From Rhynchopus sp. YZ270_cl-10 (taxonomy: Eukaryota), in contig OZ037836.1 in assembly GCA_964035575.1 (NCBI GenBank), positions 496,001 through 560,000 on the forward strand: a stretch of DNA of 64,000 nt. Direction: 5' to 3'. A program made the translations under genes and the position numbers. Positions within the stretch are counted from its first letter, which is position 1; each line of letters starts with the position of its first letter. Below the pieces are notes generated by a model. That model did not search any database and was not told the DNA's origin. It saw nothing but the letters and a program-made list of their open reading frames with translations. Positions 8,469 through 63,521 of this stretch are shown here, in pieces.

Positions 8469-9398
8469 TCACATGCACACACATTTGCGCTTGGTATCGC
8501 CCATCATGAGGTTACGGCTGTTCACATGTTCTGACACAACACTGCTCGATCCGGTGACGTTGATGCTGCTTGTAGGTATTTTGCATCCTTCCAGGAATCC
8601 TTTCTCAATGTGCTGCACACTCTTCCACCCAGACAAGTTAAGTGTCTGTAATGCGCTGCAGTTGTAGAGGACGTAATCCCCAACCCGCGCCACATTTCCC
8701 CACCCCGATAAGTCAAGTGTTCTCAATGCACTGCAGCAGGAGAGGAAGTAGTCCTCAACCTGCATTAAGTTGTGCCACCCAGACAAGTCAAGGGTTCGCA
8801 ATGCGATGCAGTTGTAGAGGAAGCAGTCTCCAACCCGCGTCACATTGCTCCACCCAGAAAGGTCAAGTGTGGTCAATGAGGTGCAGTTGGCGAGGAAGCA
8901 ATTTTCGATATGCGTCACGTTGCTCCACCCAGATAAATCAGCAGTGTGTAATGAGCTGCAGTCGTAGAGGAAGTTCCCGCCTTCTGCAGTCACACCTGGC
9001 ACACCACTGAGATCAAGTTCTTCGAACGTGGCATGTGACAAGAAGTCACAGGGAGTCTCAGTAACAACCTCCGCCTGCAGAAATAAATGAATCAGCTTGG
9101 GATCTGTCAGACCGTCGAACCTCTCTTCCGTCAGCTCTCTCTCACCCAAGTCACGAAGAGCTGTAATGGCGTCGTCCTTCTGCGACTTCGTCTTCGTCAG
9201 CACAACTGTGTCCCCAGCACTGAGCTGCGTCATGGCGTCTCCTTCGGCCAGCAGCTTCCCTCCGAAGCTCATGTCAAAGCCTTCTTCGCACAACTCTGCT
9301 GCAGACGCCACCTTCCGCCGTATGTCCGCAGTTGTATCATCCACACCCACCTCGACTGTGTACTTCTCTCCGTCAAAGCTCTTCACACATATTTCCAT
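8469..9398 (-). CDS. Ubl-LRR-CaaX protein, copy 1 (309 aa)
   Basis: Ubiquitin-like N-terminus (MEICVKSFDGEKYTVEV), LDLSGWxNV 25-aa repeats, ends KRKCVCM. Confidence 0.88.
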   Translation of the reverse strand: MEICVKSFDGEKYTVEVGVDDTTADIRRKVASAAELCEEGFDMSFGGKLLAEGDAMTQLSAGDTVVLTKTKSQKDDAITALRDLGERELTEERFDGLTDPKLIHLFLQAEVVTETPCDFLSHATFEELDLSGVPGVTAEGGNFLYDCSSLHTADLSGWSNVTHIENCFLANCTSLTTLDLSGWSNVTRVGDCFLYNCIALRTLDLSGWHNLMQVEDYFLSCCSALRTLDLSGWGNVARVGDYVLYNCSALQTLNLSGWKSVQHIEKGFLEGCKIPTSSINVTGSSSVVSEHVNSRNLMMGDTKRKCVCM

Positions 9399-9987
9399 GG
9401 TTTTGTGTCTCTCTGTTTTGTGCAAGGTGTTTTGGGGTAAGAAGAAGAATCAAGCACAGGACACGTTCATCAGTCAAGTCGCTCGACACTCCTGCTAATG
9501 CCCTTGCAACGTGAAGTGTGTTGCGTACTGGCTGTGTGTGTGTGGTGTGCAAGAGACAACAAACAGTTACAAGGGGAGAGGTCTTTTGTTTTGTTTTTGA
9601 AAGCTTCGTTGGTGTATTAGTGTGGACACCCGAGGATATATACTGCACTCTGGGGCAAGAAGAAACACACTACTTGCAGAACGGGAGTGGAAGGAGACAA
9701 GAAGAAGGCAGACATGTTGCCACTGAGACGATAGAGGTGTAAGACAAAGGGGACACCTCTGTGTGCAGAACTGTATGCTGCAAGGCTGTGATGGGATGGG
9801 AGGGATGTCTCTCTCTGTGGGGGTGGACAAGTGGCTCAAAAGTACTAAAACATGTAAAACACCTGATATTATTCAGCTTTTCTGTTCAGATTCTCTTGGG
9901 GGGGTGGGGGAAGTATAACGCAAAATCAAAAAGTAGGTGTCGAAATAAAGTGACGAGCAGCTAGACTCTCAAAAGATGCACAGTGCC

Positions 9988-10845
9988 TCACATGCACACA
10001 CATTTGCGCTTGGTATCGCCCATCAGGAGGTTATGGCAATTCACATGTTCTGACACAACACTGCTCGATCCTGCGGCGTTGATGCTGCTTGTGGGTACTT
10101 TGCATCCATCTAGGAAGCGTTTCCCAATGTGCTGCACACTCTTCCACCCAGATAAGTTAAGTGTTTTCAATGCGCTGCAGTTGAAGAGGAAGCAGTCCCC
10201 AACCTGCGTCACATTGCTCCACCCAGATAAATCAAGTGTTGTTAGTGCGGTGCAAAAGTAAAGGAAGCAGCTCGCAACGTGCGTCACATTTCTCCACCCA
10301 GAAAAGTCAACCTTTCGCAATGCGGTGCAGCAGTAGAGAAAAGCATTGCCAATGTGCGTCACATTGCTCCACCCAGACAAGTCAAGTGTGGTCAACGAAC
10401 TGCAGTTGTAGAGAAACCCGTGGCCTATTTCAGTCACACCTGCCACACCACTGAGATCAAGTTTTTTTTCGAAGCTGCTACGTGCGAAGAAGCCTTCCGG
10501 GATCTCAGTAACAACCTCCGCCTGCAGAAACAAATGTATCAGCTTGGGATCTGTCAGACCATACAACCTCTCTGACGTCAGCTCTCTCTCACCCAAGACA
10601 CGAAGAGCTGCAATGGCGTCGTCCTTCTGCGACTTCGTCTTCGTCAGCACAACTGTGTCCCCAGCACTCAGATGCGTGATGTAGTCTCCTTCGGCCAGCA
10701 GCTTCCCTCCGAAGCTCATGTCAAAGCCGTCTTCGCACAACTCTGCTGCAGACGCCACCTTCCGCCGTATGTCCGCAGTTGTATCATCCACGCCCACCTC
10801 GACTGTGTACTTCTCTCCGTCAAAGCTCTTCACACATATTTCCAT
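9988..10845 (-). CDS. Ubl-LRR-CaaX protein, copy 2 (285 aa)
   Basis: Same architecture; shortest intact copy; ends KRKCVCM. Confidence 0.88.
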   Translation of the reverse strand: MEICVKSFDGEKYTVEVGVDDTTADIRRKVASAAELCEDGFDMSFGGKLLAEGDYITHLSAGDTVVLTKTKSQKDDAIAALRVLGERELTSERLYGLTDPKLIHLFLQAEVVTEIPEGFFARSSFEKKLDLSGVAGVTEIGHGFLYNCSSLTTLDLSGWSNVTHIGNAFLYCCTALRKVDFSGWRNVTHVASCFLYFCTALTTLDLSGWSNVTQVGDCFLFNCSALKTLNLSGWKSVQHIGKRFLDGCKVPTSSINAAGSSSVVSEHVNCHNLLMGDTKRKCVCM

Positions 10846-16229: not shown

Positions 16230-17799
16230 TCACATGCACACACAGGGGAACTTCACATTGAATATCACGTGACGGCTGTGCACATGTTCTGACACAACAC
16301 TGCTCGATCCTGTGACGTTGATGCTGCTTCTAGGTATGGTGCATCCTTCCAGAAAGCGAGGAGCAATGTGCGTTACACTCGTCCACCGAGATAAGTCAAG
16401 CGTCTTCAATGCAGTGCAGTTGTGGAGGAAGGAAGAGTCTACCTTCGTCAAGGTATTCCACCCAGAGAAATCCAGTGTGGTCAACGTGCTGCAGTTGTAG
16501 AGGAAGTACCCCCCTATTTGCGTCACATTGCTCCACCCAGAAATATCCAGTGTGGTCAATGAGGTGCAGTTGGTGCTTCCCGGGGGGTATGCATTTCACA
16601 AATTTTCAATTCAATTCACAACTTTTCACAACTATTCACAACTTTTCACTACCCTTTTTTCTCTCGTTGGTGAAGCTCTTAAACGCCGGCATTTGCATTT
16701 CCGGAATCCGTACGGCCAGTGGTGGGGTCAATTTGCCGAAATGGACAAGTTCTCGTCATTTCCGCACATCACACAGTACACAGGTACACAGGTACACCAC
16801 ATCACGTTCTATCTTGTGAATCCCAGCGTACCCCTCAATGGGTGGGTCACCACCCCGCCCAAAAAAAAAGCACACAAAAAAAAAAAATCAATTCACAACT
16901 TTTCACAACTATTCACAACTTTTCACATTTTTTCACAATTTTTCACCACTTTTCACCAGCCTTCACAATTTTGTAGCGGTTTTCGTGTTGTGAAAATTTG
17001 TGAAAACTTGTCACATTTTGTGAAAATTTGTGAAATGCACACCCCCCGGGAAGCACCAGCAGTTGTAGATAAAATCGTTTCCAATGTGCGTCACCTTGTT
17101 CCACCCAGAAATATCCAGTGTGGTCAACGAACTGCAGTTGAAGAGAAAGTAGCTGTCGATGTGCGTCACATTGTTCCATCCAGAAATGTCCAGTGTGGTC
17201 AACTGGCTGCACTCGGCGAGGAAGGACAGTGCAATCTCGGTAACATTGCTCCACCCAGACAAGTCAACCTTTCGCAATGCGCTGCAGTCGGAGAGGAAGG
17301 ACAACGTAGTACGCGTCACATTGCTCCACCCAGATAAATCAGCAGTGTGCAATGAGCTGCAGTTGTGCAGGAATTTGGAGCTTATTTTAGTGACACCTGG
17401 CACACCACTGAGATCAAGTTCTTCGAACGGGAGACCTGACAAAAATTCTTTGGGGATCTCAGTAACAACCTCTGCCTGCAGAAACAAATGTATCAGCTTG
17501 GGATCTCTCAGACCTTCAAACCTTTCTGACGTCAGCCTTGTCTCACCCAAGTCACGAAGAGCTGTAATGGCGTCGTCCTTCTGCGACTTCGTCTTCGTCA
17601 GCACAACTGTGTCCCCAGCACTCAGCTGCGTGATGTCGTCTCCTTCGGCCAGCAGCTTCCCTCCGAAGCTCATGTCAAAGCCGTCTTCGCACAACTCTGC
17701 TGCAGTCGCCACCTTCCGCCGTATGTCCGCAGTTGTATCATCCACACCCACCTCGACTGTGTACTTCTCTCCGTCAAAGCTCTTCACACATATTTCCAT
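16230..17799 (-). pseudogene. Ubl-LRR-CaaX copy 5, interrupted by a TIR element
   Basis: The 5' half (17059-17799) and 3' half (16230-16570, ends FPCVCM) join in frame if the element plus one TSD copy is removed. Confidence 0.8.
16571..17058. mobile_element. 488 bp MITE-like element with ~36 bp terminal inverted repeats and a 5 bp TSD (GCAGT)
   Basis: Ends are TGGTGCTTCCCGGGGGGTATGCATTTCACAAATTTT and AAAATTTGTGAAATGCACACCCCCCGGGAAGCACCA. GCAGT at 16566-16570 and 17059-17063. Internal TTCACAA repeats. Confidence 0.9.
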
Positions 17800-18912: not shown

Positions 18913-20672
18913 TCACATGCACACACATTTACATTTGCTCTTGTTCTTGCTCTTGTTCTCGCTCTCAATATAAAAGCACCCGTCTTCTTCCATGATGATA
19001 CGGTTTTTCACATGTTCTGACACAACACTGCGCGATCCGGTGATGTTGATGCTGCTTGTAGGTATGGTACATGCATGCATGAAGTAGTTCCCGATCTGCG
19101 TCACACTCGTCCACCCAGATAAGTTAAGCGTTTTCAACTCGCTGCAGTTGGAGAGGAACCAGAGTCCGATCCGCGTCACATTGCTCCACCCAGAGAAGTT
19201 AAGTGTTCGCAATGCGCTGCAGCGGTCTAGGAAGGAGCTTCCAATTCGCGACACACAGTTCCACCCGCGGACGTCAAGTGTGGCGAGTGCAATATTAAAC
19301 TTGAAAAACGTGATCCACCCCCGCAAAAAGAAAAACCAGCAAAAGGGAAGGATGGCACCACGGTGTGCCAGAGAGTGGCTTGATCCCATTTGCTGACTTA
19401 TACCCAACAAAGAAGCGACACCTAAGTGAACAGGGGCCGTATACCACCGCTGGTGGCCTAGGTTAGTATATAAGCCAGGTCAAGGTCCGCACTCTGGCAG
19501 CGTCAAAATAAATAAACAACAATAAAACCACCAGTCATTCCAATGGGAGGAACGAATGACTGGCATCTCCTAATTCTCTAAACTGCGGTGAGTGGAACAC
19601 CCAACTGATGCAAACCACTGCCGCAGGTTAGCACCTACAAAAAGCAAAGAAAAGCAAAGAAAAGAAAAGCAAAAGCTGTGCATGGTCGTAAAGTAGGTGC
19701 AGGGTCGCTTAAATCCCTGAGGGCACAAAAAGCCCAGCATACATCTCCTCCAGTTGCTTCGGACCCTCCAGTATCATGTGCCCGGGTTTGCAAAAGTGCA
19801 ATGCAACCATCCCACGCGTGGCCTTCGTTCACTCAAAAAAGAGATTATATCCGGGGACGCCAGGGCAAAAATGCCGGGGGGCTGCCACCTCACGTTTTTG
19901 TCCCCTCAAGTGTGGCGAGTGCACTGCAGTTGGAGAGAAAGAGGTCGTCTACGTGCGTCACATTGTTCCACCCAGACAAGTCAAGTGATCGCAATGCCCT
20001 GCAGAAGGAGAGGAAGTCGTTCCCTATTTGCGTCACATTGCTCCACCCAGAAATATCCAGTGTGGTCAATGCGCTGCAGTTGTGGAGGAAGTAGCTCTCG
20101 ATGTGCGTCACATTGTTCCACCCAGACAAGTCCAGTGTGGTCAATGAGGTGCAGTGGAAGAGGAAGGAGTTTTCAATGCGGGTCACATTGCTCCACCCAG
20201 ATAAATCAACAAAGCGCAACTGGCTGCAGTTGTGCAGGAATGCGTCGCGTATTGTGGTAACACTTGACACACCACTGAGATCAAGTTCTTCGAACTGGTA
20301 ACTGCTGTTTCTCAAGAACTTTTTGGGGATCTCAGTAACAACTTCTGCCTGCAGAAACAAATGAAACAGCTTGGGATCTGTCAGACCTGTGAACCTCTCG
20401 GGCGTCATGTCGGCCTCACCCAAGTCACGAAGAGCTGCAATGGCGTCGTCCTTCTGCGACTTCGTCTTCGTCAGCACAACTGTGTCCCCAGCACTCAGCT
20501 GCGTGATGTAGTCTCCTTCGGCCAGCAGCTTCCCTCCGAAGCTCATGTCAAAGCCGTCTTCGCACAACTCTGCTGCAGACGCCACCTTCCGCCGTATGTC
20601 CGCAGTTGTATCATCCACACCCACCTCGACTGTGTACTTCTCTCCGTCAAAGCTCTCCACACATATTTCCAT
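18913..20672 (-). pseudogene. Ubl-LRR-CaaX copy 6, interrupted by a SINE-like element
   Basis: Two LRR-coding halves separated by 19292-19905; the 3' half ends KCKCVCM. Confidence 0.82.
19292..19905 (-). mobile_element. 614 bp non-coding SINE-like retro-element (family C), 18 bp TSD
   Basis: TCAAGTGTGGCGAGTGCA is duplicated at 19274-19291 and 19906-19923. A near-identical inverted copy lies at 36186-36798. No TIRs. Strand inferred from the GGGG-starting structured end. Confidence 0.85.
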
Positions 20673-34180: not shown

Positions 34181-34369
34181 ATAAAATAAAAAATCTTGTA
34201 TCAACTTGAAAAAGAAAAGCAATGAACAGCAACAGAGCCATTTGGGCTTACGCGTCGCTAAAGTAACTGAAAAACAATGTTTTAAAAACAAGAATGTCGT
34301 TGACCAAGATTGAAATACACGAAAAAGGTAAAATACTAAGAATTGCCTCATATTCCATGGGCATCGTTT

Positions 34370-35974: not shown

Positions 35975-36003
35975 CAGATGTTGTTCTTCATTTTCTTCTT
36001 GTT

Positions 36004-36185: not shown

Positions 36186-36798
36186 GGGGACAAAAACGTG
36201 AGGTGGCAGCCCCCCGGCATTTTTGCCCTGGCGTCCCCGGATATAATCTCTTTTTTTGAGTGAACGAAGGCCACGCGTGGGATGGTTGCATTGCACTTTT
36301 GCAAACCCGGGCACATGATATTGGAGGGTCCAAAGCAACTGGAGGAGGTGTATGCTGGGCTTTTTGTGCCCTCAGGGATTTAAGCGACCCTGCACCTACT
36401 TTACGACCATGCACAGCTTTTGCTTTTCTTTTCTTTGCTTTTCTTTGCTTTTTGTAGGTGCTAACCTGCGGCAGTGGTTTGCATCAGTTGGGTGTTCCAC
36501 TCACCGCAGTTTAGAGAATTAGGAGATGCCAGTCATTCGTTCCTCCCATTGGAATGACTGGTGGTTTTATTGTTGTTTATTTCTTTTGACGCTGCCAGAG
36601 TGCGGACCTTGAACTGGCTTATATACTGACCTAGGCCACCAGCGGTGGTATACGGCCCCTGTTCACTTAGGTGTCGTCTTTGTTGGGTATAAGTCAGCAA
36701 ATGGGATCAAGCCACTCTCTGGCACACCGTGGTGCCATCCTTCCCTTTTGCTGGTTTTTCTTTTTGCGGGGGTGGATCACGTTTTTCAAGTTTAATAT
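36186..36798 (+). mobile_element. Second copy of SINE-like family C (613 bp), 16 bp TSD
   Basis: GTGTCCCCAGCACTCA is duplicated at 36170-36185 and 36799-36814. Reverse complement of 19292-19905 with few differences. Confidence 0.87.
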
Positions 36799-37116
36799 GT
36801 GTCCCCAGCACTCAGCTGCGTGATGTTGTCTCCTTCGGCCAGCAGCTTCCCTCCGAAGCTCATGTCAAAGCCGTCTTCGCACAACTCTGCTGCAGTCGCC
36901 ACCTTCCGCCGTATGTCCGCAGTTGTATCATCCACACCCACCTCGACTGTGTACTTCTCCCCGTCAAAGCTCTCCACACATATTTCCATGGTTTTGTGTC
37001 TCTCTGTTTGAGGTGTTTTGGGTGGGGCAAGAAGAAACAACAAAGTTGATGCGTTACACGAAAGAGTTGCAGCAGTTGAAGCCACCCCTTCACGAAGGCA
37101 CCCCTGCCATCCTCAC

Positions 37117-46500: not shown

Positions 46501-47862
46501 TCACATGCACACACATTTACACTTGTTGTCCTCCTTCAGGTTACGGATCGCACGGCTCGATCCGGTGACGTTGATGCTGCATTTACGTAAGCCATTAAGT
46601 GCTCCTGGCCAAATGTGATCCACCTTCGCCCACCCAGACAAGTCCAATGCTCGCAAGGAGGTGCAGTTGCTGACGAAGTCGTCATCGATGTGCGTCATAT
46701 TGCTCCACCCAGACAGGTCAAGTGTGGTCAATGAGGTGCATTTGGAGAGGAAGCACCTTCCTGCCTGCTTCGCACTGCTCCACCCAGACAAGTCAGCGGT
46801 TCGCAATCCGGTGCAGTTGGCGACGAAGTCGTTCCCTACTTGCGTCACATTGCTCCACCCAGATAGGTCAAGGGTCTGCAATGCGATGCAGTTGACGAGG
46901 AATACGTTCCCCACTTGCGTCACATTGTTCCATCCAGAAATATCCACTGTGGTCAACGCACGGCAGTCGTAGAGGAAGTGCCTCTCTATTGTGGTTACGT
47001 TGTGCCACCCAGATAAGTGAAGGCTTCGCAATGCAATGCAGTTGGCGAGGAAGTAGTCCTCAATCCGCGTTACGCTGTTCCACCCAGATAAGTTCAGTGC
47101 GGTCAATGCGCTGCAGTTGTGGACGAAGTAGTTCTCAATCTGCGTCACATTGCTCCACCCAGAAATGTCAAGTGTGGTCAACGAACTGCAGTTGGAGAGG
47201 AAGCAGCTTCCTACTTGCGTCACATTGCCGCACCCAGATAAGTCCAGTGCGGTCAAGGACGTGCAGTTGTGGAGGAAGTAGGGTCCAATCCGCGTCACAT
47301 TGTTCCACTCAGACAAGTCAAGGCTTCGCAATGACGTGCATTTGGAGAGGAAGTATTTTCCTATGTGCGTCACATTGCTCCACCCAGATAAATCAACAGT
47401 ACGCAATGAGATGCAGCGGTGGAGAAAATGTTCGTTTATTGTAGCAACACCTGGCACACCACTGAGATCAAGTTCTTTGTACCTGCCGTGTGCCAAAAAG
47501 TCTAACGGTGTCTCAGTAACAACCTCCGCCTGCAGAAACAAACGAACCAGCTTGGGATCTCTCAGAGTTTCGAACCTCTCTTCCGTCAGCTCTCTCTCAC
47601 CCAAGTCACGAAGAGCTGCAATGGCGTCGTCCTTCTGCGACTTCTTCTGCCACTTCTTCTTCAGCACAACTGTGTCCCCAGCACTCAGCTGCGTGATGTA
47701 GTCTCCTTCGGCCAGCAGCTTCCCTCCGAAGCTCATGTCAAAGCCGTCTTCGAACAACTCTGCTGCAGACGCCACCTTCCGCCGTATGTCCGCAGTTGTA
47801 TCATCCACACCCACCTCGACTGTGTACTTCTCTCCGTCAAAACTCTTCACACATATTTTCAT
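46501..47862 (-). CDS. Ubl-LRR-CaaX protein, copy 11 (453 aa)
   Basis: Intact ORF with the longest LRR run; ends KCKCVCM. Confidence 0.88.
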   Translation of the reverse strand: MKICVKSFDGEKYTVEVGVDDTTADIRRKVASAAELFEDGFDMSFGGKLLAEGDYITQLSAGDTVVLKKKWQKKSQKDDAIAALRDLGERELTEERFETLRDPKLVRLFLQAEVVTETPLDFLAHGRYKELDLSGVPGVATINEHFLHRCISLRTVDLSGWSNVTHIGKYFLSKCTSLRSLDLSEWNNVTRIGPYFLHNCTSLTALDLSGCGNVTQVGSCFLSNCSSLTTLDISGWSNVTQIENYFVHNCSALTALNLSGWNSVTRIEDYFLANCIALRSLHLSGWHNVTTIERHFLYDCRALTTVDISGWNNVTQVGNVFLVNCIALQTLDLSGWSNVTQVGNDFVANCTGLRTADLSGWSSAKQAGRCFLSKCTSLTTLDLSGWSNMTHIDDDFVSNCTSLRALDLSGWAKVDHIWPGALNGLRKCSINVTGSSRAIRNLKEDNKCKCVCM

Positions 47863-50212: not shown

Positions 50213-51503
50213 GGTTTTGTGTCTCTCTGTTTTGTGCAAGGTGTTTTCAATTGGGGGTAAGAGTACGCAAGAGACAACAAACAGTTAGGGAGAGGTCTTT
50301 TGCAAATAAAAATGTGTGTTCTATTTTTCAACGTGGTCACCATCGTTTTCGTGGCTTCATGTATTTTCATGACTTGTCAGTTTCTCTATCCTCTGCGATA
50401 TGACGCGCAAACACGCCGTTTTCAATTTGATTCGCAGATACTGACTCACGAAGTTGCTGTGCCAAAAAAACACCTTCCTCTGCGAGGCGGGATACCACAG
50501 CGACAACGTCTATCACTCATGCGCCTATGAGTCGCTCAATGGCGTCATGGCTTTTATCATGACTACAGGGGTGAACAAGATACAAATACGCACATAACAA
50601 AGAACACAAATGAAGAGATGAAAGCTATCTTGCAATAACACAACAAACACCGGTGGGGTAAAACAGACACAAAAATAGCATTTTACACCCCAAAACGCCC
50701 AGAAATGGGTATACCAAATTGCTTTGCTTGAAGTACAGAAATGAGGTGAGTGCACAATAAAGGAGGAGGGTGGTAAATTTGTTTCAATAACTTTCAAAGC
50801 AAAGAAGAGAAAGCTCAAGGACGTCAATAGATGCATTCAAACGTTAGTGTTTTTGTTGCAAAAATGTGAAGAAAAAACAAAGAAAAGAGAACATTCTCGA
50901 CGTACACACTCTGTTGATTCTGAAAACGGGAGTACAAAAATAGTGCACATGGAAAACATGTGGTGCTTCCTAAGGTATGTCACAACTGTCATGTCCCGGG
51001 TGCTTCACATGCACACACATTTGTACTTGGTATCGTCCACGAGGCTATGGCCACTATCGCCACGCACATATTCTGACACAACACTGCACGATCCGGTGAT
51101 GTTGATGCTGCTTGTGGGTATTGTGCATCTTTCCAGGAAGCCTGGCCCAATGTGTGTCACATTGCTCCACCCAGACAAGTCAAGGCTTCGCAATGCCCTG
51201 CAGTAGAAGAGAAAGTTTTTCCCTATGTGCGTCACATTGCTCCACCCAGAAATATCCAGTGTGGTCAATGAGGTGCAGTTGTAGAGAAAGTTGTCCCCTA
51301 TTTGCGTCACATTGTTCCACCCAGATAAATCTAGGTTTTGCAATGCGGTGCAGGAGGAGAGAAAGTTACGCCCTACGTGCGTCAAATTGCTCCATCCAGA
51401 AATATACACACCAGGGACCACACACCACCCCAACACACTACTATCATTCACTTACCTCTTGCTTACCTCTCCTCATCCCCACCCCCACCCCAGCCTCCTC
51501 GAT

Positions 51504-53085
51504 ATGGCTGGTCCTGGACGCTCACGCGACAGATCGGGGTCCTCGGTGGAGACGAGGCTGCGCCAGCAGGACTGGAACGTGCCATGCGGCACACAGACGC
51601 AGCTCCTTGAACAGCTGCGCACAGGCAACGTGCCCGAACAAGGCGCTGTTGCCATCACGGACAAGGCGGTCGCCGCCGAAATCCTCAAGACCCACCCCCT
51701 CAACTCCAGAGATGGACCCCCCGTCGCCGTCGTGACGATGGAGCCCCTCTCCGGCCACCGCCCCCACACCACCACCTTTGTGATGTGCACTCGACAGGAA
51801 GGCAGCTACATCGCACGTACCATGTGCATGTACCCCCTCAGCCGCACACCACCCCAACACATCCTCAGGTCGACCAACCTGGGCGCTACACCGCAGATGA
51901 TGAGAGCGGTGCTAGAAGTGACACGCGACGCCAGCGACCACCACACCTGGCAGAAGACACCCGCGCAGGCCGCACGCAAGTGGCTTACGCAAGCCAACAT
52001 CGTGGCTACCTCCGTGACTGCAGCACGCGACTGCAAGAACACTACCCGCCTGCTAACCCGACTGTTTGTGCAGGTGCACCCCGATACCGACCTCCGTCGC
52101 GCGTCAGGCATCGACGGCGTGCTGATCCGGCCGCAAGCAGCCTCACGCGAGAGGGTGGTGTGGCTGAAGCCGGAGCACTCCCTCAAGGAGGCTCGTGACG
52201 CAGCACAGCTGTATCTCGGAAGGGTGATTGCATCACCCAAATCTTTTGGGTTGGTCATCACCGACCCCGACCAGGAACGCCGTGCCTGCGCGGCGATCCA
52301 CGGCGACGCTGGGCTCGCCGACCAGAAGTCGCTCCTCATGCGGGGAGTACCAAAGGCCACCAACCCCGCGGACTTTGTTGCCGCACTCAACAACCACGGT
52401 CTCAGCTGCACAGCGCAGGCCGTACAGAGCACTGGGAAGACCTGGTGCGTGAAGGTGACGACACGCCAAGGCGTCCCCGAAGACCCCTGTGTCATCAACG
52501 GGAAGCCGGTGATCGCCTGCGAGGCCCAGCCCGGACACCGCTTCAAGAGGAAGAAGAGGAAGAGGAGCGGATCGGGCCCGGGCACACCCGACTCCAAACC
52601 TGATGCAAAACGGCAGCGCAAGCCGAGAAAAAAAAAACAGCAACAAAAAAAAAAAAAGCACAACCACCGACACCACCGCAACGACAGAGCCGCAGCTTGA
52701 GTCGAGGGAGGAGCTACAGAAGCAGAACCTCGCTCTACTACAACAGCTGGTGGAGATGAAGAAGCAGCTAGAGGACCTGACGGCACAGGTGCTCAGCCGG
52801 TCACCACCCCAATCCGCCAACCACAACCACGACACCGTGATGAACGCCAAGACCCCTTCTCCCAAGAAGACCTCACTACCACCACCGCGACTGGGGAACT
52901 CAACGCCGCGCGCACCACGAGGCTCCCCGCGCACGCGCCGCTCACCACCACGGCGTGTACGTACCCCGAAGGCCACTAACCCAAATGACAGGGGGGTGGC
53001 ATCATCACCAACGTCGAAGCGCGAACGCGACGGCAACCGGAAGGGCCGGGACTCTGCGAAGAAGTCCCCCCCTTTCAGGGTCTGA
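51504..53085 (+). CDS. LINE ORF1 (basic region plus predicted coiled coil), apparent frameshift in the A-runs at ~52628-52657
   Basis: The frame from ATG 51504 to the Lys-rich region continues in the 52603-53085 frame (EELQKQNLALLQQLVEMKKQLEDL). Confidence 0.6.
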
Positions 53086-56000
53086 CTTGACCCCACTGAC
53101 ACCTCCCCCACCAACCTCTACTACATCACAGTCGTCATCAGAAGGCTGCTTGTAGAGGCGGGCATCCACCCGAAACCCGGACCCAAGCCCCTTAAATGTC
53201 TATCCTACAACATCAACGGAATGACACCACAAACGCAAGCAGAACTGGTACGACTGCTTGCACAAAATGAGTACGACGTTGTCTGTTTCCAGGAACTCAA
53301 AGCGAGCCAGACAGGCGACGTTGGCTTCGACGGATACATGCAGTACAAACGCATGCGTACCCAAGTGCGTGACAAGGGGGCGAAGACATCGGGAGGTGGC
53401 ATTGCAACCTACGTCCGCACTACACGCACCTCCAAACTCCTTTACACTTCTCCGGAGAGCAGCGTGACGGAGAGACTCGACGTCGAAGTGGAAGGTGTGC
53501 GATTCTGCAACGTGTACAGACCAAGCGCAGTAGGCCTACACAAAGACGACAAAAGAGTAGACGACTTCAATGTTAATGAACTACCCACAAAAGGGAAGGT
53601 GGTGATTGCGGGGGACGTGAATGCGCACCATCGATCCTGGGACACACACTGCGCTGCGGAAGACGCTTTGGGGAAAAAGATTTACCTTTGGACCCGAATG
53701 CACGACTTCAGCATCGCCAACGACCCGAAAAAAGCAACAAGACTCCATCTGGAGCAAAGAACCTCTCCTGACATTGTGTTGACTTCTGAGAAGGTGGCTG
53801 TCCGCGGCTGGACCACAGTGCCCAAGGCGATCTCCGACCACGTGCCTATTGAGTTCTCCATCCTGCGACCTGAGGAAGAGACCCAATGCGAGGCTGCCAC
53901 CGAACAGCGACAGCGGACAACATGGAACTGGAAGGAGGCCGACTGGGCCCGGTTCAGTACTATGTTGGAGGCAAGCACTGCGAAGACCACGAAGCGCACA
54001 GACCCCAACGAGACCTACTCCCGCTGGCTAGGGATGGTCAACAAAGCAGCTGAAGAGTGCATCCCCACGCAGCGCGTCAACCGAAAACGGCGGAAGTGGT
54101 TCACTGGTGCGGCGAAGCGGGCCATTACGAACCGTGACCGGGAACTTCAACGACAGCTGTACGCACTCTCAGCCACCGACTGCGAAAGATGCGGAACACC
54201 TCACCCATCTCCGACACAAAGCCTCAGAAGAGATTCGCAAGGCAAAAAAGCGTGTCTGGGACGCGCGATGCGACGAAGCAGCTTCGGCGGCGGACCTGGG
54301 TTACACCTTCAACCTAATCCGCGAACTCGACGGGCGTGCACAGCGATCGACCGCAATGCCATTGGCAAAAGAAGGTACACCGTTCACATGCCCCCGCGAG
54401 AAGGCCAACTACATGGCGGAACACTTGGCGACAGTGAACAGAGGCACACCCCTCACAACAAAGCCCCAACGACACAAAATCCGCAGCGTGAAAACGACAA
54501 CACCTGCAGAAGACATCTTCACCCTCGCAGAGCTGAAAACCTGCATTGGAGAGCTCAAGAAGAAGAAGTCCACTGGCCCAGACGGGGTCCACAACGAATG
54601 GCTCCAACACCTTGGTGAAGGAGCACTGCGAGCCCTCCTACATGTGTGCAACCTCTCCTGGACGACGGCAGTTCTCCCGGAGGCATGGACGACAGCAACG
54701 GTGATCCCACTGCACAAAAAAGGGAAAGACATGACTGACCCCGCGTCGTATCGCCCGATCTCTCTCACCAGCAGTGTGTCGAAGGTGATGGAGAAACTGG
54801 TAAAGCGACGTATGCACCAACTGATGAGCCAGCCAAACTCTTCAGTGAACAACCTCCACTCGGCCCAGGCTGGATTCCGATCCCTCCGTTCGACATCCGA
54901 CCAGCTGCAGCTGATCGTACAAAGCATGCACAACACATGCAACAACAAAAGATCCGGGGTACTCCTCACCTGCGATATGGAAAAGGCGTTCGATCGTGTC
55001 TGCAGAAAACGTATCCTCAAGAAGATGCACGAGATGGGCTTCCCACCTAGATACACTAACTGGGTGACAAACTATCTCACCAACAGAGTCTCGCGGGTGT
55101 CGGTGCAGGGCCATCTGAGCGACCCCTACATCTCCGAGGACGGAGTGCCGCAAGGTACCGTCCTTGCTCCATTGCTCTTCAACCTGGTGATGGACGACCT
55201 AGCGATACAGCTCAGCCGACACGGCGACGACGTGATACCGGCACTCTTCGCCGACGACGTTGCAATACTTGTGACGGGTAATACGATGGAGGATGCGGTA
55301 GCTCTTGCACAGACAGTGTTCAGTGAGGTGGAGGGGTTCACTGGTGGTGCCAACATCCGCCTATCCGCCAGCAAGACAACCTGGATGCCTGTATCAGCAC
55401 CCACACGCCTGCCAAAAGACCCCGTCAAGCTGCAACAGGTACGGGACAGACAACAAAGGGAAGACGAACTGTCCATTCACTTCCTCGACGGGTCACTCCT
55501 CAAACGAGACCTCCACCCACGATACCTAGGTCTCATTTTGGATCGCTCAGGCGACATGAAAGCACACTTCGACATGGTCGTGGAGCGCTTTTCCTGCCGG
55601 ATGTCGATCCTGCACAGCCTAGCAGGGACCGACTGGGGCTGCGACGCACACACGCTACGAGCTGCCTACCTGAGCTACGTCTACCCCACGATTACGTACG
55701 CCGCTAGTGTCTACGGCAGCAGACTCTCCGCGACTCACATCGACACCCTCGAAAAGCTCCATCGGAAGGCAGCGAAGGCAATTACGGGGTGCGACTACAT
55801 GACGCACGGACTGGACGTGCTGTGGGAGGCCCACCTGCAAACCGTTGCGTGCCACCTCCGACGTGTAGCTGCCAACGACTACGAGAAGTTCATGCGACTG
55901 CCCGACTCACCTGGACATGCTGCCGCACTCTCCACCACCAAACCACCTGGCCGCACCTGGCTCTCAGAGGCTACCGACACCATCGACGACTCCAAGGCGT

Positions 56001-57079
56001 ATAGGCACAGTGAACGTGCATTGCTGTGTGAACACGACCCCGTATGTCCCCGGGAATGGGAGGAGCTCTCGCAGTCTCTGCGGATCACCCCCACCATACC
56101 GGGCATCAACAAGAGCAGCGGAATGCCGGCTGACATCATGCTACTGCGGGCGGAAGAGACCCTCGCCGCTCTACCCAACTACGACGTGCACGTCTACACC
56201 GACGGGTCGTGCCAAGACGTGTCCCAGCGCGTGACCGCCGCTGACCCTAACCCACCTGTGCATCAACGTGGTGGCGCTGGCGCCGTGTTCTACGCGGGGG
56301 ATCGACTACACTCCCACACCAAGGAGCTGCAAACCGGAGCGGGCACAGTGAGCTCCAGTTACCAGGCTGAGCTGGTGGCAATCTGCCTTGGCTTGGAAGG
56401 CATCACGACCTGGGACGCACCCGCAGAAGTGCTCCTGCTCACGGACTCGCAATCCGCACTGATGGCGCTGGCGAGTGGCCCATGCGGGGTGCACGAGGAC
56501 ACGCTGCACCGACTCTGGCGTCTCCTACACTCACGTGCCCGTGAAGGGTACAAACTCCACCTGCACTACATCCCCTCCCACGTGGGGGTGCTAGGCAATG
56601 AGGCAGCCGACAAGCTCGCTAGCCGTGCGAACAACAGCCCCGCGAACCACGAGCGGATCAGCCTTGCGAGCATCCGCGCGTGCGTAAAGCGACGTGCCCT
56701 CAGCCGCGAGCCCACACCGTCTGAGCGCAGCATCTACTCCTACAAGAGTGGATCCACCACCGCCCTGCACCGACCTGCGCTGCGTACACCGCACCTCACG
56801 CGGCTGGGTGCGACGACCATCCGCAACCTCCGAGTGGAACGCCACCCACTCGTCTACAACAAGCTGCACCCGGACAGGACGGCGTACTGTCCACGTTGCT
56901 CCGAAGAGGCTTCGCTCCGCCACATCTTCTCCCGGTGCAGCAACCCCGCAACCCCACGCTCCAGCCTCCCTTCAACGAACCTGGGGCAGCTGATGCAACG
57001 CCACGAGGCAGACGTGCTCCGCTTCCTTTGCGAGGCTGGATACCTGGACGATGAAATTGAATCACTCATGCGCCATTGA
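53086..57079 (+). CDS. LINE ORF2: AP-endonuclease, reverse transcriptase, RNase H and C-terminal CCHC; one frameshift at ~54140-54175
   Basis: APE motifs: YNING, CFQELK, AGDVNAHH, SPDIV, SDHVPI. RT motifs: YRPISLTS, DMEKAFD, GVPQGTVLAPLLF, FADD, RYLG. RNase H motifs: YTDGS, AELVAI, TDSQS, GNEAADKLA. CCHC: CPRC..H..C. Confidence 0.93.
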
Positions 57080-57139
57080 GTCACTGATGTGGCACCGGCG
57101 TGATGACTTTTTAAACCTACCTTATCAAAATAAGAATCA

Positions 57140-57185
<46 letters not shown>

Positions 57186-58776
57186 CAAATTTTTAGCTTT
57201 TATATGGGGGCATGTCCCCTTTTGTCGTCAGCCCAGAGTCAGTAGGCTCTGCCACACCTTGGGGAGAGGTGTGCGGACTGTGTCTCCAAGAGGAAAAGGG
57301 AAGCTGTCCCCCCTGCCCCGTCGCAGTGTGGAACCCCGCTAAGTAGCACAACAACAAAACTAAGCAAGAGGCACTACCAGTGGCGCGGCTACCAATAACT
57401 ACCGTGTAGTCAGCGTCACGCCTACCATGGTAGGTTACAGTGAAAAAAAAAAAAAAAAATCCAGTGTGGTCAATGAGGTGTACTTGGAGAGAAAGAACTC
57501 CTCAATCCGCGTCACATTACTCCACCCAGAGAAGTCAAGTATTCGCAAGGCGCTCATCTCGGTGAGAAAGAAGGGCTCAATCCGCGTGACATTGCTCCAC
57601 CCAGATATATCAAGAGTGTGCAGTGAGTCGCAGTGTTTGAGAAAGAAGCAACCTACTGCAGTCACACCTGGCACACCACTGAGATCAAGTTCTGAGAACG
57701 TGCCACCTCGTAAGAAGTAATGGGGGATCTCAGTAACAACCTCTGCCTGCAGAAACAAATGAACCAGCTTGGGATCCGCCAGACCTTCGAACCTCTCTTC
57801 CGTCAGCTCTCTCTCACCCAAGTCACGAAGAGCTGCAATGGCGTCGTCCTTCTGCGACTTCGTCTTCGTCAGCACAACTGTGTCCCCAGCACTCAGCTGC
57901 GTGACGTAGTCTCCTTCGGCCAGCAGCTTCCCTCCGAAGCTCATGTCAAAGCCGTCTTCGCACAACTCTGCTGCAGTCGCCACCTTCCGCCGTATGTCCG
58001 CAGTTGTATCATCCACACCCACCTCGACTGTGTACTTCTCTCCGTCAAAGCTCTCCACACATATTTCCATGGTTTTGTGTCTCTCTGTTTTGTGCAGGTG
58101 TTTTCAATTGGGGGTAAGAGTACGCAAGAGACAACAAACAGTTAGGGGGAGGTCTTTTGCAAATAAAAATGTGTGTTCTACTCTTCAACGTGGCCACCAT
58201 CGTTTTTGTTGGCTTCATATAAGTTTTGCATTTTCATGACTTGTCAGTTTCTCTATCCTCTGCGATATGACGCGCAAACACGCCGTTTTCAATTTGATTC
58301 GCAGATCGATACTGACTCACGAAGTTGCTGTGTCAAAAAACACCTTCCTCTGCGAGGCGGGATACCACAGCGACAACGTCTATCACTCATGCGCCTATGA
58401 GTCGCTCAATGGCGTCATGGCTTTTATCATGACTACAGGGGAGAACAAGATACAAATACGCACATAACAAAGAACACAAATGAAGAGATGAAAGCTACCT
58501 TACAATAAGACAACAAACAACGGTGGGGTAAACAGACACAAAAATAGCATTTTTCACCCCAAAACGCCCAGAAATGGGTATACCAAATTGCTTTGCTTGA
58601 AGTACAGAAATGAGGTGAGTGCGCAATAAAGGAGGAGGGTGGTAAATTTGTTTCAATAACTTTCAAAGCAAAGAAGAGAAAGCTCAAGGACGTCAAAAAC
58701 ATGCATTAAAATCTTACTTATTTCAAAAAGGTTTTCACAAAAGTGTCATGTCCCTCTTTTCTTATTGTCATGGGCC

Positions 58777-60012
58777 TCACATGCACACACATTTGGTATC
58801 GTCCACGAGGCTATGGCCGCTATCGCCATGTACATATTCTGACACAACACTGCTCGATCCTGTGACGTTGATGCTGCTTTTACGCATTGTGGATGCGGAA
58901 AGTGATCCTGCTCCAATCTCCTTCACATTGGTCAACCCAGATAAGTCTAGGGTTTGCAATGCAATGCAGAAGGAGAGAAAGTTGTTCCCTATTTGCGTCA
59001 CATTGTTCCACCTAGAAATGTCAAGTGCGGTCAATGAGGTGCAGCTGTAGAGAAAGCACTCATCAACCCGCGTCACATTGTTCCACCCAGATAAGTCAAG
59101 GCTTTGCAATGCGGTGCAGGAGGAGAGAAAGTACATAGCAACCCGCGTCACATTGTTCCACCCAGAAATATGCAGTGTGGTCAATGAGGTGCTTCCGGAG
59201 AGAAAGTATTCATCAACCCGCGTCACATTGCTCCACCCAGAAATATCCAGTTTGGTCAATGAGGTGCAGTTGGAGAGAAAGTTATTCCTTATTTGCGTCA
59301 CATTGTTCCACCCAGAAATATCTAGTGTGGTCAATGACGTGCAGTTGGAGAGAAAGAAGTCTTCCACCTTAGTCACATTGTTCCACCCTGACAAGTCAAG
59401 GCTTCGCAATGCGGTGCAGGAGGTGAGAAAGAAGGACCCAATGTGTGTCACATTGTTCCACCCAGACAAGTCAAGGGTTCGCAATGCACTGACGTCGTAG
59501 TCGGAGAGGAAGAAGGACCCAATGTGGGTCACATTGCTCCACCCAGATAAATCAGCAGTGTGCAATGCGTTGCAGAATGTGAGAAAGTGGTGCCCTACTG
59601 CAGTCACACCTGGCACACCACTGAGATCAAGTTCTGAGAACGTGGCACGCGACAAGAAGTGATTGGGGATCTCAGTAACAACCTCTGCCTGCAGAAACAA
59701 ATGAACCAGCTTGGGATCTGTCAGACGTTTGAACCTCTCTGGCGTCATGTCGGTCTCACCCAAGTCACAAAGAGCTGCAATGGCGTCGTCCTTCTGCGAC
59801 TTCGTCTTCGTCAGCACAACTGTGTCCCCAGCACTCATCTGCGTGATGTAGTCTCCTTCGGCCAGCAGCTTCCCTCCGAAGCTCATGTCAAAGCCGTCTT
59901 CGCGCAACTCTGCTGCAGACGCCACCTTCCGCCGTATGTCCGCAGTTGTATCATCCACACCCACCTCGAGTGTGAACTTCTCTCCATCTAAAGTCTTCAC
60001 ACATATTTCCAT
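58777..60012 (-). CDS. Ubl-LRR-CaaX protein, copy 14 (411 aa)
   Basis: Intact ORF ending TKCVCM. Confidence 0.88.
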   Translation of the reverse strand: MEICVKTLDGEKFTLEVGVDDTTADIRRKVASAAELREDGFDMSFGGKLLAEGDYITQMSAGDTVVLTKTKSQKDDAIAALCDLGETDMTPERFKRLTDPKLVHLFLQAEVVTEIPNHFLSRATFSELDLSGVPGVTAVGHHFLTFCNALHTADLSGWSNVTHIGSFFLSDYDVSALRTLDLSGWNNVTHIGSFFLTSCTALRSLDLSGWNNVTKVEDFFLSNCTSLTTLDISGWNNVTQIRNNFLSNCTSLTKLDISGWSNVTRVDEYFLSGSTSLTTLHISGWNNVTRVAMYFLSSCTALQSLDLSGWNNVTRVDECFLYSCTSLTALDISRWNNVTQIGNNFLSFCIALQTLDLSGLTNVKEIGAGSLSASTMRKSSINVTGSSSVVSEYVHGDSGHSLVDDTKCVCM

Positions 60013-61403: not shown

Positions 61404-62360
61404 GGTTTTGTGTCTCTCTGTTTTGTGCAAGGTGTTTTGGGGGTAAGAAGAAGAATCAAGCACAGGACACGTTCATCAGTCACGTCGCTCGAAACTCCTG
61501 CTAATGCCCTTGCAACGTGAAGTGTGTTGCGTACTGGCTGTGTGTGTATGGTGTGCAAGAGATACAACAAACAATTACAAGGGGAGATAGGTCTTTTGTT
61601 TTAAACATTTTGAAAGCTTGGATGTATTAGTGTGGACACCCGAGGATGTGCTCCACTATGTGTTCCTTTTGAACGTGGCCACCATCCTTTGGTTCACTTG
61701 CCCTGCTGAGGCATGACATTTCAGTTTCTCTATCCTCTGCGATATGAAGCGCAAACACGCCGTTTTCAATTTGATTCGCAGACCGATACTGACTCACAAA
61801 GTTGCTGTGTCAAAAAACACCTTCCTCTGCGAGGCGGGATACCACAGCTACAATGTCTATCACTCATGCGCCTATGAGTCGCTCAATGGCGTCATGGCTT
61901 TTATCATGACCACAGGGGTCCAACCCTGCACATTGCTCTCACAACACAAAATACAAATATGCACACAAATGAAGAGATGAAAGATATCTCACAATAAGAC
62001 AACAAACACCGGTGGGGTAAAAACTAAAGTGCGTTTCTGGGACTTCAAAATTCGAAGGAGGGCTTTAGTCCCACCGATGTGTGTCTTACTGTATTTCATT
62101 TGACGTGCACAGAGAACAATAACATATTTTTTACACCAAATACAAAGGAGAAGAAAACAGTTTACAATAAAAGCTCCTGCGTCAGTTTTCTTGTTCAAAC
62201 GTTAGTGTTTTTGTTGCAAAAATGTGAAGAAAAAACAAAGAAAAGAGAACATTCTCGACGTACACACTCTGTTGATTCTGAAAACGGGAGTACAAAAATC
62301 GCGCATGGAAAACATGTGGTGCTTCCTAAGGTATGTCACAACTGTCATGTCCCGGGTGCT

Positions 62361-63521
62361 TCACATGCACACACATTTGCACTTGGTATCGTCCACGAGG
62401 CTATAGCCATAGCCATCCACACATTCTGAAACAACACTGCACGATCCGGTGATGTTGATGCTCCTTGTGGGTATTGTGCATGCATACAGGAAGCCTAGCC
62501 CAATGTGCTGCACGTTGCTCCATCCAGACAAGTCAAGGCTTCGCAATGAGGTGCAGTTAAAGAGAAAGAAGTTCCCCATCTGTGTCACATTGCTCCACCC
62601 AGAGATATCCAGTGTGGTCAATGAGGTGTAGTTGTGGAGAAAGCCATTATCAACACTCGTCACATTGCTCCGCCCAGACAAGTCAAGGCTTCGCAATGAG
62701 GTGCAGTTGTAGAGAAAGCCGTTCCCTATTTCCGTCACATTGTGCCACCCAGAAATATCAAGTGCGGGCAATGAGGTGCAGCCGGAGAGAAAGTGCTTAT
62801 CAACCCGCGTCACATTGTTCCACCCAGACAAGTCAAGGTTTTGCAATGAGGTGCAGGAGGAGAGAAAGTTGCGCCCTACGTGCGTCAAATTGCTCCACCC
62901 AGAAATATCCAGTGTGGTCAATGAGGTGTAGTTGGAGAGAAAGTAATTCTCAATCCGCGTCACATTACTCCACCCAGACAAGTCAAGTATTCGCAAGGCG
63001 CTCACCTCAGCGAGGAAGAAGGGCTCAATCCGCGTGACATTGCTCCACCCAGATAAGTCAACAGTGTGCAGTGAGGCGCAGTGTTTGAGAAAGAAGCAAC
63101 CTACTGCAGTCACACCTGGCACACCACTGAGATCAAGTTCTGATAACGTGGCACCTCGTAAGAAGTAACGGGGGATCTCAGTAACAACCTCTGCCTGCAG
63201 AAACAAATGAACCAGCTTGGGATCCGCCAGACCTTCGAACCTCTCTGATGTCAGCTCTCTCTCACCCAAGTCACGAAGAGCTGCAATGGCGTCGTCCTTC
63301 TGCGACTTCGTCTTCTTCATCAGCACAACTGTGTCCCCAGCACTCAGCTGCGTGATGTAGTCTCCTTCGGCCAGCAGCTTCCCTCCGAAGCTCATGTCAA
63401 AGCCGTCTTCGCGCAACTCTGCTGCAGACGCCACCTTCCGCCGTATGTCCGCAGTTGTATCATCCACACCCACCTCGACTGTGTACTTCTCTCCGTCAAA
63501 GCTCTCCACACATATTTCCAT
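62361..63521 (-). CDS. Ubl-LRR-CaaX protein, copy 16 (386 aa)
   Basis: Intact ORF ending KCKCVCM. Confidence 0.88.
   Translation of the reverse strand: MEICVESFDGEKYTVEVGVDDTTADIRRKVASAAELREDGFDMSFGGKLLAEGDYITQLSAGDTVVLMKKTKSQKDDAIAALRDLGERELTSERFEGLADPKLVHLFLQAEVVTEIPRYFLRGATLSELDLSGVPGVTAVGCFFLKHCASLHTVDLSGWSNVTRIEPFFLAEVSALRILDLSGWSNVTRIENYFLSNYTSLTTLDISGWSNLTHVGRNFLSSCTSLQNLDLSGWNNVTRVDKHFLSGCTSLPALDISGWHNVTEIGNGFLYNCTSLRSLDLSGRSNVTSVDNGFLHNYTSLTTLDISGWSNVTQMGNFFLFNCTSLRSLDLSGWSNVQHIGLGFLYACTIPTRSINITGSCSVVSECVDGYGYSLVDDTKCKCVCM

Follow-up and report, generated by a model that had tools for sequence, protein, structure and literature searches.

A tandem array of ubiquitin-like, LRR and CaaX genes in a diplonemid: a possible repertoire of intracellular binders

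Proteins with BspA/TpLRR repeats (Pfam LRR_5) form large, expanded families in the protists Entamoeba and Trichomonas, and several of the Entamoeba BspA-like members are reported to end in CaaX (PMC2843621, PMC8017271, PMC5349171). The F-box families of Caenorhabditis join a constant N-terminal ubiquitin-related module to a variable C-terminal binder, with tandem birth-and-death and positive selection reported for the binder (PMC8665587). Chlamydial NEX1/PEX1 are reported to be LRR binders (PMC4209131), FBXL2 to carry a prenyl tail (PMC7729025), and PARCEL/DUF285 to possess amphipathic repeats of 25 residues (75 nt) that are variable in number and shuffled (PMC2996958). The MUB/UBL3 proteins have a ubiquitin fold with a prenylated C-terminus. 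Counterparts to each of these features are found or predicted in the gene array described here.

The array lies in a window of 64,000 nucleotides, the whole stretch of DNA that was analysed, and its host is a diplonemid according to an Hsp70 tree. Exactly 16 minus-strand starts of a ubiquitin-like (Ubl) domain were found with tblastn and six-frame scans, the first eight at 9398, 10845, 12267, 15210, 17799, 20672, 36989, and 38779 and the last eight at 41343, 45140, 47862, 50212, 58070, 60012, 61403, and 63521. CVCM followed by a stop occurs 14 times (one extra plus-strand CVCM has no stop after it), in agreement with a preliminary description in which all 14 copies retaining a 3' end finished in CVCM. 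The 16 genes of that description stand as 16 Ubl starts but not as a coding set of 16. Only 10 copies are uninterrupted ORFs, while mobile elements break up four others (17799, 20672, 36989, and 58070) and two have no 3' end (15210 and 38779). Its 4-11 LRRs become 5-12 in the intact copies when the variant repeats at either end are included, and the 75-nt period of the LRR region was confirmed in the window. The copies and their insertions are:

8469..9398, minus strand: intact Ubl-linker-LRR-CVCM gene, 6 repeats, 309 aa (ORF scan and structure model)
9988..10845, minus strand: intact copy, 5 repeats, 285 aa
11350..12267, minus strand: intact copy, 6 repeats, 305 aa
14770..15210, minus strand: 3'-truncated copy, only Ubl and linker left
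16230..17799, minus strand: copy with both ends, MITE-interrupted, perhaps still coding should the MITE be spliced out
16571..17058, no strand assigned: MITE in copy 17799, ~38-bp terminal inverted repeats, 5-bp target duplication
18913..20672, minus strand: copy with both ends, ~615-bp element inside
19292..19905, no strand assigned: mobile element in copy 20672, 18-bp target duplication
31856..36989, minus strand: copy with both ends, 5 repeats, two insertions
36187..36797, no strand assigned: insert 1 of copy 36989, same element as 19292-19905
32445..36069, no strand assigned: insert 2 of copy 36989, 3.6 kb, 134-bp x12 tandem array, 19-bp target duplication
37115..38779, minus strand: broken copy, ~600-bp linker insertion, frameshift in repeats, 3' end deleted
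37889..38490, no strand assigned: insert of copy 38779, 21-bp target duplication
39955..41343, minus strand: open copy, 11 repeats, one carrying an in-frame insert, 462 aa
43917..45140, minus strand: intact copy, 10 repeats, 407 aa (ORF scan and structure model)
46501..47862, minus strand: intact copy, 12 repeats, 453 aa
48917..50212, minus strand: intact copy, 11 repeats, 431 aa
51005..58070, minus strand: copy with both ends, 6-kb LINE inside
51415..57460, plus strand: non-LTR retrotransposon in copy 58070, with endonuclease, reverse transcriptase, RNase H, and poly(A) end
58777..60012, minus strand: intact copy, 10 repeats, 411 aa
60369..61403, minus strand: intact copy, 7 repeats, 344 aa
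62361..63521, minus strand: intact copy, 9 repeats, 386 aa

Interrupted or truncated copies, six of the 16, speak against reading the array as binders. In the MITE (16571..17058), a GT and an AG within the inverted repeats preserve the frame. No frame-restoring GT-AG pair was found within 25 nt of the borders of the element in copy 20672, which lies in the opposite orientation to the insert at 36187-36797 and shares 98.5% identity with it. The insert at 37889..38490 and insert 2 of copy 36989 occupy the same codon and have a common 3' end (95%, 58 bp). An adenine-specific mutator of the diversity-generating-retroelement type was rejected, as the variable codons show changes of T and C besides those of A and the window's reverse transcriptase is that of a LINE. 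An assembly artefact was also rejected. Unique spacers and gene pieces showed 0 differences to contigs from two studies (four public runs, one of which may be the window's own source), and in contigs of three of the four runs the unique spacers and one insertion border were bridged with 0 differences. The kind of these contigs is unrecorded and they cover the spacers too, so they say nothing on expression. An Rfam scan of the window gave 0 matches, and a homologue search with the FUSC/ALMT gene adjoining the array gave one match, the gene itself.

The window array belongs, as one of its clusters, to a large diplonemid family, and the family and its alternative tails are new here. Protein searches found at least 166 members, probably from one assembly. 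The Ubl-linker-LRR core is common to the members and the C-terminal tags differ: 76 have CaaX, 22 have a bipartite-NLS-like tail, and two have a transmembrane-like tail. CVCM is the terminus in 64 of the 166. The CaaX ending in Met noted previously is conserved (14 of 14 window ends), and the farnesyltransferase of T. brucei is reported to prefer Met or Gln at X (PMC3206815). A membrane anchor was also proposed. As a predicted tag of the CaaX subfamily this can be kept, but it is not a defining feature of the family, given the 22 relatives with the NLS-like tail. A second Cys is present within six residues in seven of the 14 window copies. Of the 76 strict-CaaX proteins, 28 lack a second membrane signal of either kind, be it an upstream Cys or four basic residues. 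The family sequences inspected showed no enzymatic or toxin domain. Relatives of the Ubl-linker profile were found in 0 of 159 candidate stretches in viral contigs and 0 of 95 candidates in JGI metagenomes. There was no sign of a viral origin, and the viral structure matches were generic LRR/BspA proteins. The preliminary description did not recognise the three-part architecture from described families, and the Ubl-linker-LRR-CaaX arrangement was likewise undescribed in the literature searched, although the gene-family supplements of the D. papillatum genome may list it.

The resemblance of the repeats to BspA/TpLRR was borne out. LRR_5 was matched with 56-140 bits (cut-off 27.7) in three of three copies, and the 25-residue repeats are modelled as a BspA/TpLRR solenoid with two strands per repeat and no helix. 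Among the candidates returned by Foldseek, the solenoid matched the BspA/TpLRR structures 4fs7, 4fd0, and 4fdw (Z 23-24, rmsd 3.3-3.5 A, ~290 residues), whereas the rmsd to classical LRRs was 7-10 A. All 86 internal repeat units scored in the window are distinct. A fixed framework with variable positions was described earlier. The framework holds, and the variability peaks at repeat positions 14, 15, 18, and 19, with lesser peaks at 11 and 21, and the exposed LDLSG-strand positions Asp2 and Ser4 are nearly invariant. The same four positions are the most variable in the 67 CaaX proteins from outside the window (297 units) and are four of the top five in the 22 NLS-tail proteins (109 units). Since TpLRR proteins have a reversed curvature, we infer that the selected positions 14/15/18/19 would lie on the concave binding face.

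The non-synonymous excess expected at the variable sites was found with both site models and a fixed-site test. For the 86 units, M2a was preferred over M1a (LRT 19.1 with F3X4, 52.6 with F1X4) and M8 over M8a (8.9 and 39.9, respectively). In the fixed-site test, omega was 0.14-0.17 for the framework, indicating purifying selection, 0.83-0.92 and thus near neutral for the positions outside the framework, and 1.4-3.2 at positions 14/15/18/19 (p 0.039 to 3e-12, four settings). The signal is model-dependent, with p 0.039 under the most conservative setting. The LRTs are inflated by recombination; mosaic neutral simulations were below the observed LRT in five of five replicates, yet reached 7.2 in this set of only five. 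In the 19 closest unit pairs, which were chosen on all codons, pN at the variable sites (0.21) did not exceed the pS of those sites (0.20). The case for positive selection at the four positions is modest.

Repeats and flanks have been shuffled between genes. The nearest unit sits in a different gene for 82 of the 86 units, and the similarities of the 5' flank, Ubl, cap, and 3' flank are uncorrelated (five of five Mantel tests). A PHI-type test for recombination among the 75-bp repeats gave p 0.037. CVCM is retained in 14 of 14 3' ends, while the last 150 coding nt are merely 71% identical.

The N-terminus was described as nearly invariant and without a C-terminal di-Gly, and both points hold: the window copies share 84-100% identity over Ubl residues 1-64 (mean 93%), and none of the 166 family members has the di-Gly. 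The predicted model has the strands and helix of a beta-grasp fold, as anticipated, and superposes on ubiquitin with an rmsd of 1.4-2.1 A (Foldseek TM ~0.8). PF00240 was matched by 14 of 14 N-termini, and no F-box family was found in the Pfam scans. Crinkler was absent among the 16 Pfam families matched by the 14 N-termini (E<=1), a negative that is compatible with a remote Ubl header. Proteasome docking was also suggested. Docking Ubl domains of the Rad23/Dsk2 type are defined by a hydrophobic Ile44-equivalent patch. Position 44 is Ser in 105 of the 166 members, Gly in 33, Arg in 12, and Ile in two; the Ile44 equivalent is thus absent in 164 of 166, and docking by the classical hydrophobic patch is unsupported.

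Within the window, the Ubl domains are equally invariant at silent and replacement sites (pS 0.032, pN 0.033; dN = dS, 0.03; dN/dS ~1). This points to homogenisation or recent spread as the reason for their sameness, not to selection on a constant effector. Conservation of the domain, proposed earlier as a constant effector, shows only family-wide: between subfamilies the N-termini have an identity of only 52-58%, but surface residues are conserved to at least 95%. Selection on the Ubl is evident at this level and not in the window. With a window dN/dS of ~1 and Ile44 missing, nothing ties the Ubl directly to the ubiquitin system.

The array may encode a set of intracellular binders that are directed at foreign proteins and work like the expanded F-box adaptors, and we consider the chances of this to be about even. 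The shuffled BspA-type repeats would capture foreign proteins, possibly endosymbiont effectors or viral or prey proteins, and the Ubl would hand these to one constant partner in a ubiquitin or degradation pathway. The partner could be contacted by a helix/loop surface (Arg27, Lys29, Glu38, Asp39, and the Ser60-Asp63 loop) and not by the Ile44 patch. CVCM is predicted to be farnesylated, with palmitoylation likely where a second Cys precedes it. The CaaX subfamily would then be tethered to a membrane on its cytosolic side, and the NLS-tail subfamily is predicted to be active in the nucleus. A role in immunity or symbiont recognition can be inferred. Diplonemids are reported to harbour bacteria that possess LRR effectors and secretion systems (bioRxiv 10.1101/719211), and the nematode F-box families, which have been proposed to recognise foreign proteins, show a parallel evolutionary pattern (PMC8665587). 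A more tentative view, which we hold to be somewhat doubtful, is that of germline-diversified intracellular immune receptors in a unicellular eukaryote: well over 100 recombining BspA-type binders with one Ubl handle, interchangeable tails for membrane and nucleus, and, in each compartment, capture of symbiont, virus, or prey proteins for destruction without an F-box/cullin adaptor.

Oomycete Crinkler effectors have a constant Ubl translocation header, and bacterial effectors include prenylated and nuclear examples whose tails work in the target cell. The diplonemid proteins could similarly be delivered into prey or host cells, with the Ubl as translocation header and the CaaX and NLS tails acting in the target. 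A constant N-terminal Ubl, a variable binder, and tails for several compartments are effector-like. The reported feeding modes of diplonemids extend from parasitism to predation (PMC10161547). Environmental chlamydiae are reported to have birth-and-death families of F-box/BTB-LRR effectors (PMC4209131), and Entamoeba BspA-CaaX proteins to occur at the cell surface without signal peptides (PMC8017271, PMC2843621). However, this main rival is unlikely. The Pfam matches of the 14 N-termini (E<=1) include no Crinkler family, no signal-peptide-like stretch was found in the 166 N-termini (hydropathy only), and the inspected family sequences lack enzymatic or toxin domains. In addition, Met at X suits the euglenozoan enzyme, so prenylation and retention in the producing cell are probable.

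Less probable still is a role as adaptors in the cell's own regulation, with endogenous membrane and nuclear substrates and a diversity that stems from a multitude of self targets or from relaxed constraint. The prenylated LRR substrate receptor FBXL2 (PMC7729025) would be the model, and purifying selection on framework and tail, together with near-neutral positions outside the framework (omega 0.83-0.92), would fit. However, Pfam scans found no F-box, the close relatives listed seemingly all come from one assembly, unlike conserved housekeeping adaptors, and an arms race accounts better than fixed self targets for the heavy shuffling, the frequent breakage, and an omega that exceeds 1 at four sites. 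A mostly non-adaptive expansion, by unequal crossing-over of a repeat-rich, transposon-riddled gene under selection merely for fold, is equally improbable: the six broken copies of 16, the window dN = dS of the Ubl, the recombination promoted by 75-bp repeats (PHI-type p 0.037), and the drift invoked for comparable chlamydial families (PMC4209131) favour it, but omega exceeds 1 at positions that are also the most variable in two distant subfamilies, CVCM is preserved in 14 of 14 ends, and Ubl surface residues stay at least 95% conserved between subfamily N-termini only 52-58% identical.

Little is understood of the means by which protists keep intracellular bacteria and viruses in check. Diplonemids, which are abundant in the sea as predators or parasites, have endosymbionts themselves. 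Recombining, positively selected binders with a common handle and switchable tags would be concrete candidates for non-self recognition or prey-directed effectors. The 486 distinct repeat units also chart the positions that tolerate or favour change in the BspA/TpLRR scaffold, which has been little studied.

Among the known systems, the Entamoeba and Trichomonas BspA-like proteins are described as surface proteins, and the Trichomonas members are without CaaX. No N-terminal Ubl is mentioned for them in the text available, and 'ubiquitin' occurs 0 times in the main text of the Trichomonas paper (PMC2843621). The window family, in contrast, is from a free-living lineage and has 25-residue repeats and an NLS-tail subfamily. 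TIGR02167 gave 68-73 bits on window proteins (cut-off 30) with only model positions 3-17 of 26 aligned, and the second half of the window repeat is BspA-like, unlike PARCEL/DUF285; the word 'ubiquitin' does not appear in the text available of the PARCEL paper (PMC2996958). Unnamed ubiquitin and DUF285 clusters in the ESM Atlas (scores 0.79-0.81) are leads only, and none of their members was seen among the best 150 profile matches. Plant MUB is reported to inhibit E2 charging (PMC4996978). The window family is large and has a linker and 5-12 variable repeats between Ubl and CaaX, whereas MUBs are single-domain and conserved. Finally, the family differs from the F-box adaptors in having no F-box, BTB, or RING, and any link to a cullin ligase would be hypothetical. 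Its constant module is a ubiquitin fold, which, if the binder reading is true, would stand in for the F-box and BTB domains of the nematode, plant, and chlamydial expansions.

The ubiquitin-like (Ubl) and leucine-rich repeat (LRR) family is real and is larger than first reported. It apparently represents a domain combination undescribed so far, with switchable tails. A recount of the window gave 16 Ubl N-termini and 14 CVCM-stop ends, as in the preliminary description; every one of them is on the minus strand. That description also spoke of 16 genes. The 16 Ubl starts stand, but only 10 of the copies are uninterrupted reading frames (285-462 aa, each holding 5-12 of the 25-residue repeats). 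Two copies, 15210 and 38779, have lost the 3' end (copies are named by the window position of the Ubl start codon). In four others both ends are kept, but mobile elements flanked by target-site duplications interrupt the sequence:

Mobile elements inside copies that keep both ends
Copy 17799, a MITE, with a target-site duplication
Copy 20672, a 615-bp element, with a target-site duplication
Copy 36989, two elements, with target-site duplications
Copy 58070, a 6-kb LINE, with a target-site duplication

Unique spacers and gene pieces of the window are matched without differences by contigs of four runs from two studies. All 16 copies share only about 35 nt upstream of the ATG, and at least seven different flanks lie past this block among the 14 copies classed. 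The AG dinucleotides in the block could serve as a trans-splice acceptor.

By analogy, the copies split by elements are not necessarily dead, since whole transposons can sit within introns of Diplonema papillatum (PMC10161547, excerpt). Frame-restoring GT-AG pairs, which may occur by chance, lie close to the insert borders in two of the three copies checked (one in 17799, four in 58070, and none in 20672). The MITE (16571-17058) holds GT at 17056 and AG at 16576 in its terminal inverted repeats, so that, whatever its orientation, 12 nt would remain in frame if it were spliced out. It is a candidate intron-generating element. Its summed contig depth is about a thousand-fold that of unique spacers, which suggests a high copy number, depth not being a copy count. 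Two window copies carry related elements (37889-38490 and 32445-36069) at an identical linker codon, with 19-21-bp target duplications that each match their own gene. The same elements are read into or out of at about that residue in proteins of distant subfamilies from outside the window (P0111, P0164, P0167, P0171, P0177, and P0189). This pattern suggests a site-specific mobile element aimed at this gene family. The 615-bp element is present twice in opposite orientation (19292-19905 and 36187-36797), flanked by 18-bp target duplications; it carries short inverted repeats in subterminal position and is also read through in the proteins P0072, P0076, and P0126. The LINE (51415-57460) is frameshifted and encodes endonuclease, reverse transcriptase, and RNase H; its other copies in the sequencing runs differ at many sites. 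A perfect 7-bp unit, telomere-like or satellite, is repeated 125 times beside the truncated copy 15210 (13668-14540). A 134-bp unit is repeated 12 times at 34346-35985, within the 3.6-kb insert.

Other genes were also found in the window:

Other protein-coding features of the window
1398-4325, minus strand, 976-aa protein that by eye resembles a receptor-type cyclase and has two hydrophobic stretches; no confident Pfam match
6061-7902, minus strand, divergent Hsp70 with a long branch
27894-30887, minus strand, FUSC/ALMT-like membrane protein within the array; the homologue search returned only itself

The Hsp70 is 76% identical to a D. papillatum protein. It groups with D. papillatum in a 100/100 clade, outside kinetoplastids and euglenids; the tree was built from 29 rows picked from 120 matches. 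Going by this one multi-copy gene, the DNA most likely comes from another diplonemid.

In the full-length model (pLDDT 90.9, pTM 0.76), residues 1-69 form a beta-grasp and 73-108 three linker helices; the repeats, of two short strands each and without a helix, are followed by a capping helix and a disordered tail. The predicted Ubl superposes on ubiquitin, in line with the fold first proposed, and di-Gly is absent from the family. Where ubiquitin has Ile44, 150 of 166 members have Ser, Gly, or Arg. At least 95% of the family retain Asp21, Thr22, Arg27, Lys29, Glu38, Asp39, and Ser60-Asp63, among others, a level of conservation that a profile search favours. Subfamily N-termini are 52-58% identical to one another. 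The Ubl had been called nearly invariant; its local constancy in the window is, judging from silent divergence, homogenisation, since that divergence climbs from 0.03 in the Ubl to 0.08 and 0.17 in the linker and 0.26 in the first repeat. The BspA/TpLRR resemblance of the repeats was borne out: these structures are the best matches to the linker-LRR model (pTM 0.85; Z 23-24; TM 0.58 to 4fs7 versus about 0.2 to internalin A and SHOC2). The PARCEL model also scores on the repeat, over its first half.

A search with one copy gave 257 proteins; of the 120 listed, every one is an unnamed ENA or window protein, and 51 lie on a contig equal in length to the one that holds the window. The Ubl and linker profile matched 1117 cluster representatives, of which the best 150 were examined. 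At least 166 proteins with a full Ubl-linker (118 + 48) are present among the matches listed, with fragments and poly-Ubl matches left out and 137 and 967 further matches beyond those listed. Nine of ten divergent members checked map to ENA contigs of 0.47-2.7 Mb, three of them with lengths that also occur in the one-copy search, suggesting one assembly; P0260 sits on a contig of 976 bp and may belong to a different organism. In P0219, P0224, P0237, P0242, and P0256, the Ubl runs straight into long, unrelated sequences (by eye, one is RT-like), which are probably insertions just after the Ubl and possibly true fusions.

The likeliest reading of the array, which we put at about even odds, is a repertoire of intracellular binders. 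The C-terminal tail would decide the compartment, and the Ubl would recruit a constant partner via a surface distinct from the Ile44 patch. Plausible ligands would be proteins of endosymbionts (bioRxiv 10.1101/719211, excerpt), viruses, or prey. That the proteins are effectors delivered outside the producing cell is unlikely. Tails among the 166 are strict CaaX (76, with 64 CVCM), bipartite-NLS-like (22, a pattern of two basic clusters matched by 23 before P0087 was removed as false), transmembrane-like (2, called by threshold), or other (55, many cut off by insertions). By analogy, CVCM would suit the preference of trypanosome farnesyltransferase for Met (PMC3206815, excerpt). An extra Cys lies upstream of it in 7 of the 14 window copies. 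Tags cluster on the N-terminus tree (four changes for CaaX, two for NLS; none of 500 shuffles as low), in a sample biased to the query's own CaaX subfamily, and each may still have a single origin.

In a binder repertoire, new binding faces would arise by recombination among 75-bp units, and selection would favour change at four positions per repeat. For 82 of 86 units the nearest unit is in another gene, showing that units are shuffled among genes, and 5' and 3' flanks are reassorted among copies. Framework sites have omega of 0.02-0.3 (86 internal units). The site models favour a class of omega 1.4-2.2, into which positions 14, 15, and 18 of the repeat fall every time. In five neutral mosaic simulations the LRT ran from 0 to 7.2, as compared with 19.1 observed. 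Positions 14, 15, 18, and 19, first picked from window data, have omega of 1.4-3.2 as a fixed class (p 0.039 to 3e-12), and non-window proteins confirmed them as the most variable. A tree-free pair count at these four positions was mixed, with pN > pS in five of six settings and about equal values in one. The signal of positive selection at these sites, as read from the sequences, is real but modest. The strand corresponding to the ligand-binding strand of classical LRRs is nearly invariant in the family. Opposite to it are the variable sites, on what we take to be the concave side in TpLRR proteins. Adaptors for self proteins seem improbable as an alternative reading. Drift likewise has little probability.

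Ubl-BspA-CaaX proteins were not found described in the open-access literature, subscription papers lying outside the search, and neither 'LRR' nor 'ubiquitin' occurs in the main text of the D. papillatum genome paper. In excerpt, PMC9525666 and PMC11674859 give general LRR background only and PMC2996958 covers PARCEL repeat proteins. The diplonemid family is probably not the sole case of a Ubl fused to this repeat superfamily, because the ESM Atlas has unnamed Ubl-DUF285 clusters (only leads, at scores under 0.9). The diplonemid family is not a MUB. Its proposed working would be like that of expanded F-box adaptor families (PMC8665587; PMC4209131) and its LRR and prenyl layout is that of FBXL2 (PMC7729025), but an F-box is absent. 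Entamoeba BspA proteins (PMC2843621; PMC8017271; PMC5349171) have the repeats and CaaX as well; what the diplonemid family adds is the Ubl.
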